64,000 nt of DNA. Source: Octopus vulgaris (lineage: Eukaryota). Below, piece after piece: positions 48,812-63,660 of the stretch; positions within the stretch are counted from its first letter, which is position 1, and each line of letters starts with the position of its first letter. Below the pieces are notes generated by a model. The model was not told where the DNA came from. It was given only the letters and a program-made list of their open reading frames with translations, and searched no databases. Location: the NCBI GenBank assembly GCA_951406725.2, contig OX597832.1:42346001-42410000 (forward strand). The letters run 5' to 3'. Made by a program: the position numbers and the translations under genes.

Positions 48812-49018
48812 TGAACAAGTTGAAGAAGAAACTTTAAAATATTGTTTAAAGAATTCGGCCTAAATATTACTACCGTTACCACTATTTTAACCAAAGTTGA
48901 CTTCCTGGATGTCATCCTAAGCTTTAACACAGGCAAGTACTATCCGTACGGAAAGCCGAATGAGGAGACTGTTTACATGCACAAGGGCTTCAACCACCCT
49001 CAGCTGGAATTACAAACC
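48812..49018 (+). pseudogene. Penelope-like element RT fragment (Naiad-like by recall)
   Basis: From 48842: LFKEFGLNITTVTTILTKVDFLDVILSFNTGKYYPYGKPNEETVYMHKGFNHP, showing the PLE RT FLD..YKP..Y.H..SNHP pattern. Confidence 0.75.
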
Positions 49019-50210
49019 TGATGTGTGTGTGTGTGGAAGAGACTGTGTTACGGGATATGTTTGTGTAAAAAATACATGGAAAATACATCCACAAGGACTT
49101 CAACCACCCTCAGCTGGAATTACAAACCTGGTGTGTGTGTGTGTGGAAGAGACTGTGTTACGGGATATGTTTGTGTAAAAAATACATGGAAAATACATCC
49201 ACAAGGACTTCAACCACCCTCAGCTGGAATTACAAACCTGGTGTGTGTGTGTGTGGAAGAGACTGTGTTACGGGATATGTTTGTGTAAAAGATACATGGA
49301 AAATACATCCACAAGGACTTCAACCACCCTCAGCTGGAATTACAAACCTGGTGTGTGTGTGTGTGGAAGAGACTGTGTTACGGGATGTGTTTGTGTAAAA
49401 AATACATGGAAAATACATCCACAAGGACTTCAACCACCCTCAGCTGGAATCACAACCTGGTGTGTGCGTGTGTGTGTGTGTGTGTGTGTGGAAGAGACTG
49501 TGTTACGGGATATGTTTGTGTAAAAAATACATGGAAAATACATCCACAAGGACTTCAACCACCCTCAGCTGGAATTACAAACCTGGTGTGTGTGTGTGTG
49601 GAAGAGACTGTGTTACGGGATATGTTTGTGTAAAAAATACATGGAAAATACATCCACAAGGACTTCAACCACCCTCAGCTGGAATTACAAACCTGGTGTG
49701 TGTGTGTGTGGAAGAGACTGTGTTACGGGATGTGTTTGTGTAAAAAATACATGGAAAATACATCCACAAGGACTTCAACCACCTCAGCTGGAATTACAAA
49801 CCTGGTGTGTGTGTGTGTGGAAGAGACTGTGTTACGGGATGTGTTTGTGTAAAAAATACATGGAAAATACATCCACAAGGACTTCAACCACCCTCAGCTG
49901 GAATTACAAACCTGGTGTGTGTGTGTGTGGAAGAGACTGTGTTACGGGATGTGTTTGTGTAAAAAATACATGGAAAATACATCCACAAGGACTTCAACCA
50001 CCCTCAGCTGGAATCACAACCTGGTGTGTGCGTGTGTGTGTGTGTGTGTGTGTGCGGAAGAGACTGTGTTACGGGATATGTTTGTGTAAAAAATACATGG
50101 AAAATACATCCACAAGGATTTCAACCACCCTCAGCTGGAATTACAAACCTGGTGTGTGTGTGGAAGAGACTGTGTTACGGGATATGTTTGTGTAAAAAAT
50201 ACATGGAAAA
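48974..50210. repeat. ~110-bp minisatellite, 11 near-identical units each containing (GT)n
   Basis: ggaagagactgtgttacggg counted 11 times at a ~110-bp period. Confidence 0.97.
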
Positions 50211-51576: not shown

Positions 51577-51579
<3 letters not shown>

Positions 51580-51768
51580 AGAGTTTACGAAAAAAACAAA
51601 AAAAAACGAAGACAGGTGGTGTACAAAGCAAACACATGTATTAGTATAACCCTCAGGAATAGAAAAATGTCTTTTACGTTTCGAGCCTACGCTCTTCTAC
51701 AGAAAGGGACACAGAAAAAACAAGGAGAGAAAAAAATGTGTGTAGTGGCTAACGATCTATCATGGCGA
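51577..51768 (-). mobile_element. ~190-bp element with minimal hammerhead (51671-51706), CUGUAGA core
   Basis: cttt CTGTAGA a gagc gtag gctc GAAAC GTA aaag. Abuts (TA)n. Same family as the 62993 and 63471 copies. Confidence 0.75.
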
Positions 51769-52124
51769 CTGATCACGAGCAGAAGTAGTGGGGGAGCATC
51801 ATAGCCATGTGTTGAGAAGGATTCTTTGGGGTTTGAATAATTCACCTCTGGAAACCTGGATGTTTCGTTCAACATCCTTAAACAACCCTTATTCAGGGAC
51901 CATTTGAGCGGGATGGGTTACTCGGTCAGAAGAAAATTCTAACTAGGCCCCACCTGCAAGGTCATGCGCTGTTTATCTTGATATGAGATCACCATGTCGC
52001 GCACATATGGTTGTGATGCATGTGCCTGGTGTACCCTTATCAAACGGGTAGTCACGATGAGTATACTGGGCTTCGTATATTTTACCCCAGTGTCACTTTG
52101 ATGGCATGCACTACTCTCTCACTC
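51769..52124 (+). mobile_element. Unclassified retroposon-like fragment ending in (AAT)n
   Basis: GC-richer block with a terminal hairpin running into an AAT tail. Family not established. Confidence 0.4.
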
Positions 52125-52177
<53 letters not shown>

Positions 52178-52178
<1 letters not shown>

Positions 52179-52362
52179 CCTTTCTACTGGAGGCACAAAG
52201 CTTCAAATTTGTGGGGTCGGAAGTAGTCGATTATACCTGAATTAGTACTTAATTTATCGACCCCGAAAGGTTGAAAGGCAAATCAGAACATAAGCGACGG
52301 GCGAAATATCGCTAAGCATTACCTCCAGTGTACTAAGGATTCTTTCCTGTCAGCTCGCCACT
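52178..52362 (-). mobile_element. SINE family B, degenerate
   Basis: Family B match. Confidence 0.7.
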
Positions 52363-52367
52363 TTGAC

Positions 52368-52426
<59 letters not shown>

Positions 52427-52910
52427 GATAATAACAACATAAAATTAATAATAATGATTTCTTTGAGCGTATATCTGAAGCTCCTGAGGCACTTATTTTA
52501 AAGACCAGCTCCATCTGTTCCCGGTTATCTAATTCCTTATATCAACCTATTTTGCTTAAGTCCATCACCTCCTACACAAGCGTGTGTGTGTGTGTATCAA
52601 TGTGCACGATTTTGTTTTTGTAAATGTGTCTGTATATATATATGTATATGCATTCCTTTCACGTATATCTATTTATTATAAACTAATTTGATAGTTCCAC
52701 AACGATGGTGTACATTATTTACTCTCTCCTCCCCTCTTCTACCACCACCACCACCACCACCACCACCACAAACCCTGCCATCAACAGCCTCGCATTTGAA
52801 GAGAATGGACAATAAAGCGAATATTTTCACTGACCGATCTTTGAACCTAGACATTAGAAAATTTTATTAAGAGGTTGTGAGACTGGCTTTTTATTGTGCA
52901 GTGCATTGTC

Positions 52911-52952
<42 letters not shown>

Positions 52953-52955
<3 letters not shown>

Positions 52956-53314
52956 GACCTGCTAATAGAAATTGAAAAAATGTGGCATCTCAAGGCGACT
53001 ACAGTACAAGTGATTGTAGGATCTCTAGGAATGATAAAAAAAAGGTACTGAAACCTATTTGAAAATGATTCCAGGCTTACCATCTCTACAGGAAGTGCAA
53101 AAAATCGTATTAACTGGAACGGCTCATGTACTGAGAAGAGCACTATCGTTGTGAAAATAACATCCATCCATGAATTTATTTATTTGTTAATTTTTAAATA
53201 CATATTTTATCTGTGAATTTGCATGTGTAATCTGGGAATGCTCTTCTCTGCCCTAGGTGTATGGAAAACACTCGGCGAGAAACGGAAGAAAATTTGAAGA
53301 AAGAAGGAAAGAAC
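52953..53314 (+). mobile_element. 3' end of R4/Dong-type retrotransposon in (AAT)n
   Basis: KDLLIEIEKMWHLKATTVQVIVGSLGMIKK / GTETYLKMIPGLPSLQEVQKIVLTGTAHVLRRALSL*. AAT arrays on both sides. Confidence 0.8.
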
Positions 53315-53369
<55 letters not shown>

Positions 53370-53371
53370 TA

Positions 53372-53591
53372 ATCCTGTCTACTGGAAGCACAAGGCCTCA
53401 AATTTGAGGGAAGGTATCAAGTCGATTACATCGACTCCAGTGCATGACTGGTACTTATTTGATCGACCCCCAAGAGGACGGAAGGCAAAGTCGACCTCGG
53501 CGGAATTTGAACTCAGAACGTAGCGACTGGCGAAATACCGCTAAGCATTTTTTTGACCAGCGTGCTAAACGATTCTGCCAGCTCGCTGCCT
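53372..53591 (-). mobile_element. SINE family B
   Basis: Family B match. Confidence 0.85.
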
Positions 53592-54319
53592 CAACAACAA
53601 CAACAACAACAACAACAAGCAGCAGCAGCAGCAGCAACAACAACAACAACATCTTTTCATATTTTGAGGGACAAGGATAGTTCAAATATTAGCCTCATTG
53701 TTATGTACGTATATATATATATATATGTATTTAAAAAATATATGTATGAATGTATGTATAAATATGTATACATAAATACATATATATTTATACATACGTA
53801 CATCCAAAGAGACATGTAATTGAGGAAAACACTTCAATGTCATCGTTTTGCATACCAAATATACTAAAACACAAATACAATAAGGTCTTACATACGTAAT
53901 AGTTAGAGAGGTCATTAACTAAGATTATCCATGCAATTAATTGATAAAACTCATTCCGTAGGTGTTTAAAGTATAAAATCCAATAACTAAGAAAATAACT
54001 TGGATAAGTTTAATAGCTCGAAATTTTCGGAAAAGATAGCCAATGCAAAACTCAGTCTTGCCACCGGAATAGAATCCGGGATCGGGAATTATCCAGCAAA
54101 TTTTTTTGCTAGTTTATTTTGTCTCTTTGTCTTCTCTCCTGGTGCTTTATGAACATTTAATGTGGTTTTAGAGTCAATTTTGACTGCTATATCCAGCGTG
54201 GTGGTATCTCTTAGATACCCTAAATTATAATTTTAAATGATTATTACCGTTGAAAGGTTTTTATTCCCATGCTGGCCATCTCGGTACTTTAAATATCGAT
54301 CTTATCCTTATTCATATAA

Positions 54320-54409
<90 letters not shown>

Positions 54410-54411
<2 letters not shown>

Positions 54412-54822
54412 TTAGGGAGTATGGCTCCAAACTTACAGGGAAAAATTAGATTTAGGATTAAATCAAATTTCACAGTATAAATATATAAAATATGAATTAG
54501 AGATAAAACCACTATTATGCAATTCAAACAGTGATAGATATAAACCAATAGATAAATAACAAATAATATAAATATAATTAATATAATATATAATATATAT
54601 ATATAACTTTTCCCCCCAAAAGTATAAAAGTAATGATAAATATAATATAATAAATAAAAATACTTATTATATTATATTTATAACTACTTTTATACTTTTG
54701 GGAAAAAAAAATTATATATATATATCATATATTATATTAATTATATACATTATTTGTTATTTATGTATTGGTTTATGTCTATCACTGTTTGAGTTGCATA
54801 ATAGTGGTTTTATCTCTAATTC

Positions 54823-54830
<8 letters not shown>
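54410..54830. mobile_element. Fold-back element: unique tail plus ~166-bp AT-rich arms (54488-54828)
   Basis: aattagagataaaaccactattatgcaattcaaacagtgataga / tctatcactgtttgagttgcataatagtggttttatctctaatt. 10-nt loop at 54654-54663. Confidence 0.85.
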
Positions 54831-54878
<48 letters not shown>

Positions 54879-55082
54879 AACGCTAATAACACCATATTGT
54901 GAGATGTATTCTCTCCGCTAGTCAGCCTTACATGTGAATTTTCCATGGCCAGGGACATGAAAATCTGCGTAACAGATTACTGTTACTATGTCAGATATTC
55001 TTTGATATATTTATTTTGTATATCAACGTTAGAAGATTTGGAAACACGCAAACAGTCACGCAAACACCGTGCGCCTCTGTAT

Positions 55083-55157
<75 letters not shown>

Positions 55158-55449
55158 TGTCCGTCCGTCCAGAACTGGGTTAATATTCCCATTTTCCTTA
55201 CGCGCGGGAGATGGAATGTGGACGGGAGAAAAATGTTTCTGTGTTACGATAAATTGCTAGAATGTTTAGTATTCAGACCGGAACTTGTAAATGAGTAAAA
55301 GAGGAAAAGAATGATGTACCTCATAAATGATATCTCTGTCTTCCTTGTTCCAACCAATGAATCCTTTATACGCACACATACACGCACGCACGCACGCACG
55401 CACGCACACGCACGCACGCACACACACATACACACATGTATATATATGT

Positions 55450-55548
<99 letters not shown>

Positions 55549-55722
55549 CATATGTAAGTATGTATGTATGTATATATATCTATATCTGTATCTATATCTA
55601 TCTATTTAGCTATCTATCTATGTATATACTGATTTATGCATATATGAATGTGGCTGCAGTCTAATGAGTGAAACAAGTAAAAGATAAAAAGATTATATAT
55701 ATATATATATGTATATATATAT

Positions 55723-56120
55723 AAATCAGTAAATAGTGGGGTTGTGTGTTAACCGCACGTGGAGAAATGATAGGAAAGGAAAAAAATTACAAGGCAGAAT
55801 GCTAAATTGAAAGTAATTTTTATAAAAATGGGTGTATGAAAAATTAAAAAAGAAAAAATAATAAATCAAACCGGTTTTCATTGCAAGGCATCTGCCTTAT
55901 AATTTTTCCTTTCCTATCTATATATCCCATAGGATATATATATATATTCCATAGGCTGGGATTTCGTTATTTTCTGCCTTTTTTGCCATATACAGCTTAC
56001 AAATTCTGTTTGTTTGTGGAGACTTTTATTAGTAGAGGAAATTGTGATCAATTTTGGCTGCTATTTCGAATATTTTCGGTATGTGGTTTTGAGCAACTTG
56101 TTGCATTTAACCCTTAATTA
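55723..56120. mobile_element. TA-flanked insert with inverted repeat (55769-55802 / 55888-55918)
   Basis: gataggaaaggaaaaaaattacaaggcaga / tctgccttataatttttcctttcctatc. Minus-strand GAAAACCGGTTT half-motif in the spacer. Confidence 0.55.
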
Positions 56121-56156
56121 TAATTATATATATATATATGTATGTATGTATGTATG

Positions 56157-56333
56157 TTAAGTTAAGTTAAAAGCAAAAAGCAAGGCCATGTAGGGGAACA
56201 TGGAGTTATGTACAAGGAGGGTGTTCATGCAAAGAGTTCAGGCCATTTCTGGTCAAGAGAGACTTTGAACCGAGCGGTCGTCGGCATCTTCACTATCTCG
56301 TCCGGCAGCTTATTCCACGGATCCGCAACCCGG
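56157..56333 (-). mobile_element. CR1-group LINE 3' end
   Basis: Homologous to 45709-45905. (TTAAC)n tail. Confidence 0.75.
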
Positions 56334-56546
56334 ATGTATGTATGTATGTATGTGGGCGCAGGAATAGCTGTGTGGTAAGAAGCCACATGGTTCCGGCTTA
56401 ATTTCTTCTACTATAGCCACGGGCTGACCAAAGCCTTGTTGGTGGATTTGGTAGGTGGAAACTGAAAGAAGCCAGTCGTTTATATATTTACGATTAAGCT
56501 CGCTCTCAAAAAGCGTTTTTTTTTAAAGCGTTTGCAGTTATGAAAG

Positions 56547-56656
56547 TTTTCAATTGCTATTTTTCGTGAAATATTTTCAATTGCTATTTTTCGTGAAATA
56601 TTTTCAATTGCTGTTTTTCGTGAAATATTTTCAATTGGTATTTTTCGTGAAATATT
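56547..56656. repeat. 27-bp tandem repeat x4
   Basis: Unit ttttcaattgctatttttcgtgaaata. Confidence 0.92.
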
Positions 56657-56969
56657 CAAGAAATGTCAATTTGATGAAAGCTCATTATATTTTATAAACA
56701 GGATTTTATTATTCTTGAAAAACCTGGTATTATTAATGAAGTGGAAACAGCTGCAATCTATCAGATTTATCCTTTGTTTCTATAAAGTAATTGAAGTGAA
56801 TTTATCATTTAATGATTAAATTACTTAATTGTTCAACTTTTTGTTTTGGTTTCCATTTCTTACACACACACATTGCGCGGCACCTTGGGCAAGTGTCTTC
56901 TACTATAGCCTCGGGCCGACCAAAGCTTTGTGAGTGGATTTGGTAGACAGAAAATGAAAGAACCCCGTC

Positions 56970-57012
<43 letters not shown>

Positions 57013-57090
57013 TATTAGAGACAAAACCACTATTTTGCATTTTGGATTTATTCCCTAATATTTATTATTATATATATATATATATATATA

Positions 57091-57262
57091 GTTAATCCAA
57101 ACAAGAAAACACAGAAAAAAACACAGCAACGATAGGACGTGGAACAATTAAAGTATTATTTGACGCTCAGGAAAGAAGGGAAGGAGGGTTTAACGTTTCG
57201 AGCGGAGCTCTTCGTCGGAAACAAGGAGAAGGAAACATCCCGAGAAGGGAAGACAGAGGAAA
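57091..57262 (-). mobile_element. Element with minimal hammerhead (57188-57222), CCGACGA core
   Basis: Motif identical to 15665-15699. Abuts (TA)n. Confidence 0.75.
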
Positions 57263-57363
57263 AAAAAAAAAATATATTTATAGTTATCGCCATACTAACA
57301 CATATTAATTTCCAGTAACGCTGCCGTAATCTCTTTTGAGAGACTTAATAATTTTAATATTTC

Positions 57364-57411
<48 letters not shown>

Positions 57412-57438
57412 GTATGTATATATATATATATATAAATG

Positions 57439-57473
<35 letters not shown>

Positions 57474-57486
57474 GTATATGTATATA

Positions 57487-57551
<65 letters not shown>

Positions 57552-57949
57552 GTATGTATGTATATGTTTGTGTGTCTGTGTTTGTCCCCCCACCATCGCT
57601 TGACAACCGATGTCGGTGTGTTTACGTTCCCGTAACTTAGTCACCAGTCGTCCCGGCTGGTTGATTCTCTTAAAGTGTCATTATGTAATTGTAAGATCCA
57701 AGTGACTGAGTGAAGGCAGTCAGTAAGCTTCGAGTCGTCCATACATGTGTGTATGTATGTGTGAGAGAGAGAAAGAGAGAGAGGGAAAGAGAGAGAGTAA
57801 AGGAAAAAGATAGAGATAAAGATAGAGAGAGAGAGAGAGAGAGAGATGACATGAAGACAGTGAAAATGTAATAACAGATAAAGACATATAATGTATATAT
57901 AATAATTGTTTCTGACAGGATCTGAAAGTTCGGGTGTGTGTGCGCAGAT

Positions 57950-59045
57950 TAGTTGATTAAATTGACTAAGCCCCTTTCTCCAACTTTCACGTCCTGTTTC
58001 TTCCAGTACTTAATTAATATTTTATTTTGTCAACTGCGGAAAGATGAAAGGTAAAGATTGATCTAGGGTGAGATGTGAACTCAGTGCGTAAAGAGCCGTG
58101 TCTAAATGCCGTAATATGTTTTGTTCGACGCTCGAGCGATTATGCCAGTACACCGAATAATTGTTTGAAATTTAGGCTGAGGGTAACTTGTTTTGAGGGA
58201 AGGGTGGTACTCGGTTACATCGACTGCAGTACTTGACTGGTACTTTATTTTATCGACCCCGAAAAGATAAAAAGTAAAGTTGACCTCGGCGTAATTTGAA
58301 CTCAGAACTCAGAACGTGATTTGAACTCAGAACGTTCAAATGCCGCTAAGCTTTTGTTCCGACGCTTTAACGATTCTTCTAATCTACCATCTTTATCTTC
58401 CATCAAATTGTTTTCTTTCATTTTTTTCTTTGTAATTTCGGCACAAGGTCATTAATTTTGAGGGGAGGAGACAAGCTGATCTCTTCGTGCTTGACCTCCG
58501 TCCATCACCGCCTGGTAAACCGGTGTTGGTTAGTTACGTCCTCGTAACTTAGCGGTTTCGGTAAAACGAACTGATAGAAAAAGTTCTAGACTTAAAAATA
58601 GAAAAAAAAAAAGAAAAATAAAGTACTTGTGTCCGGTACTTTATTTTATCGAACCTGAAAAGATGAAAAGCAAGTTTGACCTAAGTGGTATTTGCACTCA
58701 AAACGTACGTAAAGATCCGGAAGAAATACCACCAACCGCTTGTCCGGCGCACAAGTAATTCCGCCGGTTCGCTGCCTTTATCTTCTTCCTAAAAAAGATA
58801 TGAACCCACGCATGATATACGTTCTTTCTTCTTTTTTTATTCTTTTATTTGTTTCAGTCATTTGACTGCGGCCATGCTGGAGCACCGCCTTTATAGTCGA
58901 GCAAATCGCCCCCGGAGCTTATTCTTTGTAAGCTTAGTACTTATTCTATCGGTCTTCCTTTGCCGAACCTCTAAGTTACGGGGACGTAAACGCACCAGCA
59001 TCGGTTGTGAAGTGATGTTGGGAGGACAAACACAGACACACAAAC
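57950..59045. mobile_element. Cluster of old SINE B copies (minus) and SINE A 3' halves
   Basis: Repeated gtactttattttatcgac...gaactcag blocks. SINE A tail on the minus strand at 58845-59045. Confidence 0.7.
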
Positions 59046-59092
59046 ATACATATACACACATACATATATATATATACATATACAACATATAC

Positions 59093-59171
<79 letters not shown>

Positions 59172-59174
<3 letters not shown>

Positions 59175-59402
59175 ACAATAAGGGTGAAAAAATTGAATAT
59201 TAATTAATAACATCAATTCAAACACCAAGTGGCCTAGCGTATAAAAGACTGGGATACAGAAAAAATTATTAATACAAAAGAATAAGAGAGAGTTCACCAT
59301 GTGGTCACTCTAACGCTAGATATAGATCCGCAAAGGGAATCCCTTTGCGGATCTATATCTAGCGTTAGAGTGACCACATGGTGAACTCTCTCTATTCTTT
59401 TG

Positions 59403-59405
<3 letters not shown>
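59172..59405 (-). mobile_element. Fold-back element in (TA)n: unique tail plus ~66-bp arms, 1-nt loop at 59339
   Basis: About 54 bp of perfect palindrome arm. Tail homologous to 27500-27575. Confidence 0.88.
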
Positions 59406-59490
<85 letters not shown>

Positions 59491-59500
59491 ATATATATAC

Positions 59501-59546
<46 letters not shown>

Positions 59547-59574
59547 ATATATATACATATGTATATATATATAC

Positions 59575-59617
<43 letters not shown>

Positions 59618-59670
59618 GTATATATATATACATATGTATATATATATATATATGTATATATATATACATG

Positions 59671-59744
<74 letters not shown>

Positions 59745-60689
59745 CACATATATATATACATATGAAAGGAGTTAAGGAAATTTTCTGTGAACTCAACAGT
59801 TTTCCTTCGAGATAACCCCTGCAATATACTTTTAAGTAAACTCGTTATATTCTCTCAAAGAAAGACCCTCCAATCAATGCAAATGTTTTACCTGCATCTA
59901 ATCTCTTCGCCCTCAAATTTAATCCTACTTCCCCCACAACAAAATACCTTTCTCTTAACTAACACTTTACCCCTGTTAACCACTTTCCTCGAAACTAAAA
60001 CTAGTTCCCTCAAACCGAAAAAAACCCCAGAAAACAAACCCCAAAGAAAAACCCCAACAAAAAAAAGAAGAAAAAACCCGAACAAAAACAAAACTAACCC
60101 TTTTATCCGATAAAAGCCAGCCCTTTCACTCAGTATTATCCTTTTCTCCATCTAACCCCATTTCTTTCGTTAAAAAGGTCCTCTTTCTTACAAAAACAAA
60201 TTACACTGAATAAATACAACTATAAAGCTCCCTTTGTGTATCATAAAAATAATGGATTCATTGAGGAAAGCAAAAAAAGTCATTTTTTTGGGGTTTTTTT
60301 TTTTTTTGAGAAAGACCCAAAACCGACGGGTTTTGCTTTTTCTTTACTCCATCACCTGTTTCGCGTAGCACTCGATAGGTGGCTGCTGTGCATGTTATTG
60401 ATGCTAATGATGATGATGATGATGATGATGTCGATTGTGTTGTTATTAGGTCATGTGATCGACGTTGTTGTTGCTGTTGTTGTTGTTGTCAATTGTTGTT
60501 CGTATTGTTGTTTGTTGTTGCTTGAAGCATTCGTTGTTGTTGTTGCTGGATGTTGTTGTTGCTAATGTCGTTTGTTTGTTTTTTTGTCATTGGTGTTGTT
60601 GTTGTTTATGTTGTTGATGCTATCGTTATCATCTTCGTTGTTGATGTCATTGTTGCTGCGGTTTCTATCATCATCATCATCATCATCAC

Positions 60690-60804
60690 CCTTCTTCTTC
60701 TTCTTCTTCTTCTTCTTCTTCTTCTTCTTCTTCTTCTTCTTCTTCTTCTTCTTCTTCTTCTTCTACTACTTCTTCTTTTTCTTTTTCTTTTTCTTCTTTT
60801 TCTT

Positions 60805-60867
<63 letters not shown>

Positions 60868-60924
60868 CTTCTTCTTCTACTACTACTACTACTACTACTA
60901 CTTCTTCTTCTTCTTCTTCTTCTT

Positions 60925-60983
<59 letters not shown>

Positions 60984-61003
60984 TCTTCTTCTTCTTCTTC
61001 TTC
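60690..61003. repeat. (CTT)/(CTA) microsatellite
   Basis: Direct reading. Confidence 0.95.
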
Positions 61004-61394
61004 TCCCCCTCCTCCTTCTTTGTTATTAGTATTATTGCCGCCGCCGCCGCCGCCGTCGTCGTCGTCGCTGATGATGTTTTGTATTGTTGTTGTTGATGTT
61101 ATTGCCATCGTAGTTTCTCTTTAGCATTGTTTTTTTTTTATTAGTTGTTTGTCATTGCTGTTGCTGTCTGTATTGTTGTTATTTGTCATTGCTGTTGTTA
61201 TTGATGTTGTTGTTGTTGTCATCATAATTTTTTATCGCACGTAGTCAGAGCCGGGAGTGGTTCGGACACATTACATAAAACGACGAGGAAGTCGGTGGTG
61301 TCTTAACGAGCGACTTCATGCTTGTCAGTCGACTGGAATTTCCTCGATGGGTTCTGTGATGTCCGTAGGTGTAAATGGTATGCAGCGGCAGAAC

Positions 61395-62370
61395 CGTCCC
61401 AGATATGGGAGCAGTATTCAATAGCAAGTTTTTTCCTAAGCTTCGTATACGATAAGTAGTGGAGGCGCAATGGCCCAGTGGTTAGGGCAGCGGACTCGCG
61501 GTCATAGGATCACGGTTTCGATTCCCAGACCGGGCGTTGTGAGTGTTTATTGAGCGAAAACACCTAAAAAGCTCCACGAGGCTCCGGCAGGGGGTGGCGG
61601 TGATCCCTGCTGTACTCTTTCACCACAACTTTCCCTCACTCTTACTTCCCGTTTCTGTTGTACCTGTATTTCAAAGGGCCGGCCTTGTCACTCTCTGTGT
61701 CACGCTGAATATCCCCGAGAACTACGTTGAGGGTGCACGTGTCTGTGGAGTGCTCAGCCACTTACACGTTAATTTCACGAGCAGGCTGTTCCGTTGGTCG
61801 GATCAACCGGAACCCTCGTCGTCGTAACCGAAGGAGTGCTTCCATAGGATAAGTAATTGCTGGTTCTGAAAACGAAGCTCAGTCTCATTGATGTAGAAAC
61901 CTCAGCCATCATCCACCTGGTGTTGTCCCCTGTCTCCATTTCAGGGATCGGCTTGCCAATACTTTCCTGTTCCCTCTGTACGGTGCTGCCTGCATACAAT
62001 CAGTCCGGGATCCGGACAAAATCCCCTAGGAAAAATCCCACTGTGGGCTATGTAAATGAGAGGAAGACCATGAAGAAATAGCACAGTCCCAGATATGGGA
62101 GCAGTATTCCATCGCTGGGGTCCCTAAGTTTTCGTATAAGATAAATAATGGATGGTTCTGAAAACAAAGCTCAATCTGTGATGTAAAAAAAACTTCAGCC
62201 ATCAGTTAGGTGTTGTCCCTGTGTCCAGTCCAGGGATCGGCTTGCCAAAACTTTCCAGTTCCTTATGTACCGTCCTGCATGCATACAATCAGTCAGGCTC
62301 TTGTTTTCAGGGTCCGGACAACGCTCTCCCCTCTGGACTATGTGAATGAGAGGAAAACCAAGGAGGAATG
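61395..62370. repeat. Diverged ~290-bp tandem duplication, first copy split by a SINE
   Basis: gtcccagatatgggagcagtattc, cagggatcggcttgccaa and gcatacaatcagtc each occur twice. Confidence 0.85.
61461..61843 (+). mobile_element. Full-length tRNA-derived SINE family C
   Basis: A-box tggcccagtgg, B-box ggtttcgattcc. Imperfect 14-bp TSD at 61447-61460 and 61844-61857. Confidence 0.88.
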
Positions 62371-62391
62371 TCTGAATGGCGTAGTATTCCA

Positions 62392-62597
62392 CTGACCCTT
62401 AACGTAGTTTTCAGGGAGATTCAGTATGACACAGAATGTGACAAGGCTGGCCATTTGAAATATAGGTACTTCTAAAATATAGGTCAGCTCAGTGGACTGG
62501 AGCAATGTCAGATAAAGAGTCATGCTCAAGGACAAAACGTGCTGCTAGGAATCGAACTCACGACATTACGACTGTGGGCCGAATACCCTAACCACTA
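62392..62597 (-). mobile_element. SINE family C variant, partial
   Basis: tRNA-like head plus shared body. Confidence 0.75.
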
Positions 62598-62992
62598 AAA
62601 AGTTGAGTTTATGCGAGATTGGATTGAAAGGGTTCAGATCCCTTTGATCCCCCACTTCAACACATTATTGACGTTTGGCTTCTTCAGTAGGCATGGCATG
62701 ACTAGTTATAAAAATGTTAATAAATTCAATCTTTTCAGTTTTCCTATTTATTTTCTTTTCCGTTTTCATGTTTATTAATGTTTTTTTTCATTTCTCTTTG
62801 TCTATTGAGAGTTAACTATTTTTTTTAGTTGGGGAGATAATCAAAAGAACCGATATTTTTCATAAAACTGGTGAGATAACCCAGTTTTTTAATGGCGGTG
62901 AGATAACCAAACTGTATCACAATAAAAAAGTGAAACTATTGTATCACATTACAATAATACCGAAACAGTCTAAGACTCGTATATATATATAT

Positions 62993-63143
62993 ACGCCATG
63001 ATAGATCGTTAGCCACTACACACATTTTTTTCTCCCCTTGTTTCTCTCCTTGTTTTTTTTTCTGCGTCCCTTTCTGTAGAAGAGCGTAGGCTCGAAACGT
63101 AAAAGACTTTTTCTATTCCTGTGCGTTATACTAATGCATCTGC
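62993..63143 (+). mobile_element. Element with minimal hammerhead (63070-63105), CUGUAGA core, 3'-truncated
   Basis: cttt CTGTAGA agagc gtag gctc GAAAC GTA aaag. Confidence 0.75.
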
Positions 63144-63266
63144 TCCGGACTCGTATTAGGCAAGAAGTTGAAAATTGTTTTGGTCCGTGACACTCCATAT
63201 GTAAAATTCGAATGAAATCGGTTGGGTAGTCCTCGATATTTACTGATGCATACATACAGACACACA

Positions 63267-63278
<12 letters not shown>
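63144..63278 (-). mobile_element. Possible Helitron-like 5' fragment
   Basis: Minus strand starts tatataaaactgtgtgtctgt, like the 10394 Helitron. Confidence 0.35.
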
Positions 63279-63303
<25 letters not shown>

Positions 63304-63380
63304 ATTCTCAATTATTTTGCTATACATATATACATATGTTTATATACATACATATATATATATATAAATATATATATATA

Positions 63381-63470
<90 letters not shown>

Positions 63471-63473
<3 letters not shown>

Positions 63474-63658
63474 AGAGTTTACGAAAAAAACAAAAGACGA
63501 AGCCAGGTGATGTACAAAACAAGCAGATGTATTAGTATAACGCTCAGGAATAAAAAAAAGTATTTTACGTTTCGAGCCTACGCTCTTCTACAGAAAGGGA
63601 CACAGAAAAAAACAAGGAGAGAAAAAAATGTGTGTAGTGGCTAACGATCTATCATGCC

Positions 63659-63660
<2 letters not shown>
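63471..63660 (-). mobile_element. Element with minimal hammerhead (63562-63597), CUGUAGA core
   Basis: Inverted relative to the 62993 copy. (TA)n on both sides. Confidence 0.75.

Follow-up and report, generated by a model that had tools for sequence, protein, structure and literature searches.

We examined a 64-kb window of the Octopus vulgaris genome (64,000 nucleotides; GenBank assembly GCA_951406725.2, contig OX597832.1, positions 42,346,001 to 42,410,000, numbered below from its first letter) harboring three copies of a repeat of about 190 bp. Each copy carries a motif built like the minimal type I hammerhead ribozymes of Penelope-like elements (PLEs), in which core position 6 is U (U6) in place of the A of the canonical CUGANGA core. 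Contigs from four public sequencing runs reveal that U6 is fixed family-wide, in essentially all related copies, and that it is old, spanning several subfamilies that differ at positions 7 and 17 and in their flanks. At the sequence level the U6 variant is real and family-wide and likely under constraint, its function being putative. Our tentative reading, to which we give a little less than an even chance, is that a PLE targeting (TA)n mobilizes the repeat as a non-autonomous passenger, the hammerhead of which is weakened by U6 yet kept by selection.

The function of PLE hammerheads has been called unclear, with the suggestion that they may merely parasitize the elements (PMC8557442), and cleavage is dispensable in vitro for the element PAc (PMC11167929). 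A high-copy family combining a core change predicted to be crippling with apparent hammerhead-like constraint amounts to a natural experiment separating cutting from folding or binding. Should the U6 motif cut well, the rule of an invariant A6 would need widening, as would the descriptors that searches have derived from it.

A fuzzy search of the whole window, tolerating up to seven mismatches, returned exactly three U6 motifs, each with no mismatch over 27 bases. The elements and their motifs are as follows:

51577..51767, minus strand: U6-family element copy 1 (191 bp), with (TA)n on its 3' side and an unrelated repeat on its 5' side
51671..51706, minus strand: hammerhead motif of copy 1 (minimal, type I), with the predicted cut after A17 (51675)
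51703-51706/51671-51674, minus strand: stem I of copy 1
51702-51696, minus strand: core C3-A9 of copy 1 (U6 at 51699, N7 at 51698), with the extra A at 51695
51694-51683, minus strand: stem II of copy 1, followed by GAAA (51682-51679) and the palindrome ACGU (51679-51676)
62994..63144, plus strand: U6-family element copy 2 (151 bp), bordered by a few TA repeats on the 5' side and lacking the 3' part
63070..63105, plus strand: hammerhead motif of copy 2 (C3 at 63074, U6 at 63077, A17 at 63101)
63471..63659, minus strand: U6-family element copy 3 (189 bp), with pure (TA)n on both sides
63562..63597, minus strand: hammerhead motif of copy 3 (C3 at 63593, U6 at 63590, A17 at 63566), with the fourth stem I pair broken

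All three copies share CTGTAGA-a-GAGC-GTAG-GCTC-GAAA-CGT-A, starting at the C3 positions given above. The core reads C3 U4 G5 U6 A7 G8 A9 in each. Downstream of it come one additional A, a stem II whose arms GAGC and GCUC enclose a loop of four bases, then GAAA, the ACGU palindrome and A17. The 4-bp stem II and the loopless palindrome are unbroken throughout; stem I has four pairs in copies 1 and 2 but three in copy 3. The original prediction had described three CTGTAGA copies with U at position 6, an intact stem II and a loopless palindrome, and every part of that description held. The pattern running from stem II to stem III occurs six times in the window, in the three U6 copies and in three copies of a sister family (family B, presented below), as against 0.00 occurrences expected from 100 shuffles. 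Inspection by eye led us to dismiss other registers of the core, with a U inserted after G5 or with UAGAAGA as its beginning, as they cost the 3-8 pair or stem II. Rfam gave no match at gathering score in the window, and no hammerhead family matched copy 1 up to E=10.

The window repeats were mapped by masked self-BLAST. The U6 element is a repeat of 189-191 bp (copies 1 and 3) with the motif at its middle, copy 2 missing its 3' part and having 14-15 bp duplicated internally, on the upstream side of its motif. An unrelated sequence (63145-63270) stands where the 3' part of copy 2 would be, and we take it to resemble a Helitron-like tail. The copies are 94.1-94.9% identical over pairwise aligned columns and their flanks differ; copies 2 and 3 lie about 330 bp apart on opposite strands, while copies 1 and 3, on the same strand, are 11.9 kb apart. 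Given the different flanks and the 5-6% divergence, the three copies are not the product of one local duplication.

To follow position 6 beyond the window, we selected four public runs, each under a different organism label, out of 24 and aligned their contigs on copy 1 with thresholds of 80% likeness and 1% share, so that the results concern relatives within 80% of copy 1; 21,739, 19,861, 12,563 and 8,730 contigs aligned per run. Family B, with its 3-base loop, apparently fell outside this alignment. The variant table lists 40 of its 62 rows, tables were combined by hand, and all percentages refer to contig depth, which is not copy number, with variants unphased. Copy 1 lies on the minus strand; on the plus strand, exactly one A>T place was found in each of the four runs, always at 51661 (5.8-11.5%). 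Since this sole place is not 51699, canonical A6 accounts for less than 1% of the depth in all four runs. The same reasoning excludes G6. It also rules out C6 for run X6, whereas C6 is possible in the three others, which have one or two A>G places beyond the rows listed. Because A6 stays below this level across subfamilies that are unlike at positions 7, 17 and in their flanks, U6 must be old. The original prediction that the master copy amplified with the variant is therefore supported, and was understated. The opposite outcome that it had itself named, a canonical consensus with the window copies arising from one local duplication, is not what the contigs of the four runs and the separate flanks gave.

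The motif has likely stayed under constraint after U6 arose, to judge from how the relatives vary within it. Position 7 varies in the four runs (A7>U in 11.4-30.3%, A7>G in 6.1-13.0%), as do the first base of the stem II loop (5.9-24.6%) and position 1.4 (6.3-14.3%), while changes at core positions reach at most 3.5% among the rows listed. At the cleavage site, A17>U ranges from 2.3 to 24.2%, and since every T>C place is accounted for, G17 remains below 1% in all four runs. Under the NUH rule, a G at position 17 blocks hammerhead cleavage. Among 32 positions, three of the four sites with a variant at 10% or more fall within the seven free positions (P=0.025) and none of the same four within the 13 core positions (P=0.11), in a test that comprises just these four sites, picked after inspection.

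The outline of the motif is also visible in the alignment itself. Loose ends recur at 51669 and 51707, the motif borders, in all four runs and are among the best supported, and the 5' parts of those at 51707 are unlike and long, with a median of 99-131 letters. Across the four runs, the motif has a summed depth 1.4-5.0 times as high as two sites in the flanks. We read these relatives with unlike flanks that stop at the motif borders as a sign of several diverged families having the U6 block in common. A separate observation concerns the palindrome, whose bases at 51677-51678 change in 4.6-9.2% of the depth, about twice as often as the neighboring CpG (1.4-3.5%); these unphased changes may perhaps correspond to a subfamily with a U-A palindrome.

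Several lines of evidence indicate that the U6 ribozyme is likely weakened. In published hammerhead mutagenesis, changes at position 6 lead to low activity, as established on other scaffolds and without a figure for A6U itself; we found no A6U value in the available text of PMC9901934. A natural A6C core retains a low but detectable activity (kobs <0.1 per min; PMC3088659), and pairwise mutagenesis found no rescue inside the CUGA region. No compensating change elsewhere in the U6 core was seen in the copies aligned. Folding predicts that U6 pairs with A15.1 within a helix U4-G5-U6/A15.1-C15.2-G16.2: the probability of the G5-C15.2 pair is 0.71-1.00 in eight of eight U6 contexts versus 0.00-0.42 in eight of eight A6 contexts. 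Such a helix with the stem III strand would, in the model, compete with dimer formation. The hammerhead dimer of copy 1 is predicted to lie 13.5 kcal/mol above the dimer minimum, the sister-family control being also far above it. At their 5' end, the two full U6 copies reach 93-94 bases beyond the predicted cut; as they extend across it, their template RNA was uncut. The data fall between the two options of the original prediction, a functional core variant or an element with no further need of cleavage: the motif likely remained constrained, but its cutting is probably weak and was dispensable for making the inserted copies. As the defining A6 is lacking, we call the U6 block a variant built like a minimal hammerhead rather than an established ribozyme, and its status as a ribozyme is putative.

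Mobilization by a PLE protein is likely, as judged from the type of motif, the target and the geometry. Like the minimal type I hammerheads of PLEs (PMC4209133), all three U6 motifs display the type I order, GAAA, stem II, an extra base after A9, G10.1-C11.1 and a loopless CG-containing palindrome (ACGU) followed by an NUH site (A17), together with a short stem I and U-rich flanks; mostly solo copies and a low predicted activity are further shared traits. The difference resides in the core, CUGUAGA in the three copies, whereas A6 is found in 44 of the 44 rows covered from Fig. S3 of that work and is demanded by its descriptor. In addition, the window copies adjoin no RT-endonuclease gene, unlike the PLEs of PMC4209133. 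With regard to the target, the (TA)n preference stated for Neptune/Naiad-type elements (PMC8557442) is found here on both sides of copy 3, on one side of copy 1, as a short run at copy 2, and at the sister copies as well. With regard to the geometry, the distance from G10.1 to the 3' end is 115-118 nt in the two full U6 copies and 121-124 nt in three sister copies, while reverse transcription of PAc, a Poseidon element of Anolis, begins 111-118 nt past the start of stem II (PMC11167929). PAc further resembles the U6 element by a hammerhead about 115 nt from the insertion end, AT-rich targets and an uncut template, and differs in being autonomous and tandem, with an open reading frame (ORF) starting from stem II and a canonical, protein-assisted ribozyme. 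In vitro, mutating the hammerhead leaves PAc insertion normal; the template is mainly uncut RNA, and the ribozyme depends on the protein for its cleavage (PMC11167929).

Under the preferred reading, the passenger with a weakened hammerhead, a master copy ancestral to the family would have undergone a single change of A6 to U, one base away from the common CUGAAGA. U6 would both lower the chemistry and, by pairing with A15.1, fold the monomer shut as a rod; any remaining cutting would require a dimer or a partner protein. The motif would be retained by virtue of a partner protein that binds or folds it. A short solo element would lose nothing by cutting slowly and might even benefit, given that each cut would leave it with half a template.

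Other origins of the repeat fit less well. Copies 1 and 3 have no terminal arms and hence lack the terminal inverted repeats of miniature inverted-repeat transposable elements (MITEs). No tRNA-derived head of a short interspersed nuclear element was detected in the window, where ARAGORN gave 0 genes and Rfam 0 matches, although decayed heads could escape both. Six-frame reading uncovered no gene of its own within the U6 element, and the window copies are solo, with no tandem or partial-tandem pseudo-long terminal repeat layout. Two further candidates were rejected: a Pol III promoter, whose box-like words are present in the wrong order (by eye), and a PLE gene end upstream of copy 1, ruled out by six-frame reading alone.

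Beyond the limits stated above for the mutagenesis scaffolds, the choice of four sites and the unphased contig depths, several observations weigh against the preferred reading. The 47-nt rod shows no clear gain in stability over shuffled sequences (z -1.77, 10 of 200). A rod in another register is formed by canonical A6 cores too, when they have U17 together with C7 or U7; since A6 cores close a similar rod, the lock is not special to U6. Consensus agreement of the loose ends is just 0.55-0.62, and A-rich flanks bearing insertions and deletions lose depth for technical reasons. The six frames of the 64-kb window contain no PLE reverse transcriptase or GIY-YIG motif, and hence no ORF combining both as in autonomous endonuclease-bearing PLEs, and no PLE partner emerged among the five window ORFs scanned against Pfam. 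Three U6 motif strings gave no match in the available Naiad/Chlamys/Hydra supplement of PMC8557442. Finally, the stem I covariation is weak: over the seven window copies of the two families, the fourth pair is G-C in three, C-G in two, A-U in one and unpaired in one, a pattern reached by 32 of 500 shuffles.

The ribozyme could instead be dead, the block being kept just because a partner protein binds it or because it belongs to an internal promoter. This we regard as unlikely, although it draws on the same low activity of position 6 changes and on the core predicted to be tied up by U6. It would also agree with the normal insertion of PAc hammerhead mutants (PMC11167929), with Naiads that amplify without canonical hammerheads (PMC8557442) and with promoters residing in PLE repeats (PMC6765202). 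A dead motif is at odds with variation that obeys the rules of cleavage, position 17 being A or U with G below 1% in the four runs and position 7 taking three letters between fixed neighbors, and with the low detectable activity retained by the natural position-6 variant (PMC3088659).

Conversely, the core may cut. It is fairly improbable, in our view, that an octopod PLE lineage possesses a working U6 hammerhead activated by dimerization or by its own protein, and that descriptor-based surveys missed such families. It is improbable that the U6 core itself is competent, a dimer context or partner protein offsetting the lost A6 and restoring the normal rate of a minimal hammerhead. The conservation pattern is that of hammerheads, and protein rescue has a precedent in PAc, whose hammerhead cleaves only with its protein (PMC11167929); as the descriptors in use demand CUGANGA, U6-type variants would be missed. 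Set against this competence are the lack of a compensating core change, the absence of rescue within the CUGA region in pairwise mutagenesis, the inserted copies that cross the cut site and the unfavorable dimer of copy 1.

We consider it quite improbable that U6 is a neutral relic, a single mutation in a successful master with the conservation of the block an effect of alignment or assembly. The informative sites are few, the absence of variable sites from the core has P=0.11, the depth peak over the motif in run X2 is merely 1.4-2.0, and the unique words of the motif, being richer in G+C, may simply align better than A-rich flanks. Such an effect does not account for loose ends at both motif borders in all four runs, with long unlike 5' parts, nor for three of the four variable sites lying at positions that hammerheads leave free. 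A chance motif, or a single local duplication within a family of canonical consensus, is of negligible probability: two of the three copies do lie 330 bp apart, but the absence of matches expected by chance, the 5-6% divergence, the unlike flanks and the near absence of A6 in the run contigs refute it, unless canonical members were clipped in the alignment.

Changes at conserved core positions have been reported in natural hammerheads, including at position 6 (PMC3088659: A6C of phage Bcep176, U4C, U3-A8). Whereas A6C is reported from one phage locus, an animal repeat present in high copy number is fixed here for A6U, in several subfamilies and uncompensated. A natural U6 hammerhead was not found in the literature searched, the scope of which excluded Lunse et al. 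and part of the supplement of PMC4209133. Pattern scans with positions 6 and 7 open gave no match in viral contigs or in prokaryote genomes and three in metagenomes, none of them with U6: two represent one animal-like locus with a canonical core and the third a bacterial chance match. The animal-like contig (L001:1501-1530 and L002) bears a canonical CUGACGA minimal hammerhead with the same GAGC/GCUC stem II.

Non-LTR (long terminal repeat) retrozymes (PMC7229834; bioRxiv 10.64898/2026.07.22.740005) are likewise short, non-coding, hammerhead-bearing and proposed as PLE passengers; theirs are tandem, canonical type I and circle-forming, in contrast with the dispersed (TA)n monomers and minimal variant core found here. 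The Naiad elements of Octopus (PMC8557442) share the (TA)n targets and the occurrence in octopods, and differ in that the listed consensus sequences lack the U6 motif and in their 3' ends (by eye). The dimer model of PLE hammerheads is summarized in PMC6765202. Two octopus repeat papers report PLEs, and the available text of the one searched for ribozymes does not mention them.

Sister family B, a repeat of about 200 bp, has four copies in the window. Over aligned columns these share 50-58% identity with the U6 copies; the stem II arms and a downstream word are common to both families, and the family B loop has 3 bases:

15567..15765, minus strand: family B copy with core CCGACGA (C at position 4, A6) and stem II arms as in U6
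26893..27092, plus strand: family B copy whose core is the canonical CUGAUGA, with position 17 occupied by G and a single mismatch in stem II
57090..57270, minus strand: family B copy with core CCGACGA, lacking the 5' part
10920..11115, minus strand: family B copy, decayed

The U4C change, present in two of the four copies, is another core change for which lowered activity is reported, and CCGACGA may be the signature of a further subfamily in which a weakening change became fixed. A covariance model built from the seven window copies of both families retrieved no further window copy below E=0.3.

Other repeats populate the window. A palindromic element at 36945-37371, with an inverted near-copy, contains a CUGAAGA...stem...GAAA motif (match at 37130, minus strand) that lacks the palindrome and stem I of minimal hammerheads (by eye). 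Five more self-complementary, MITE-like elements of 130-310 bp lie at 16058-16268, 16609-16770, 27158-27470, 44605-44762 and 59275-59402, and a tandem array with a unit of about 110 bp covers 48974-50210. On the plus strand, 16839-17900 encodes a reverse transcriptase fragment (RVT_1) of a long interspersed nuclear element (LINE), the nearest named relative of which is an Argonauta hians protein (60% identity). Also on the plus strand, 35038-36257 comprises a pair of open frames that overlap, and is likely a broken LINE ORF1; the second frame gives a weak match to a zinc knuckle, below the Pfam cut-off.

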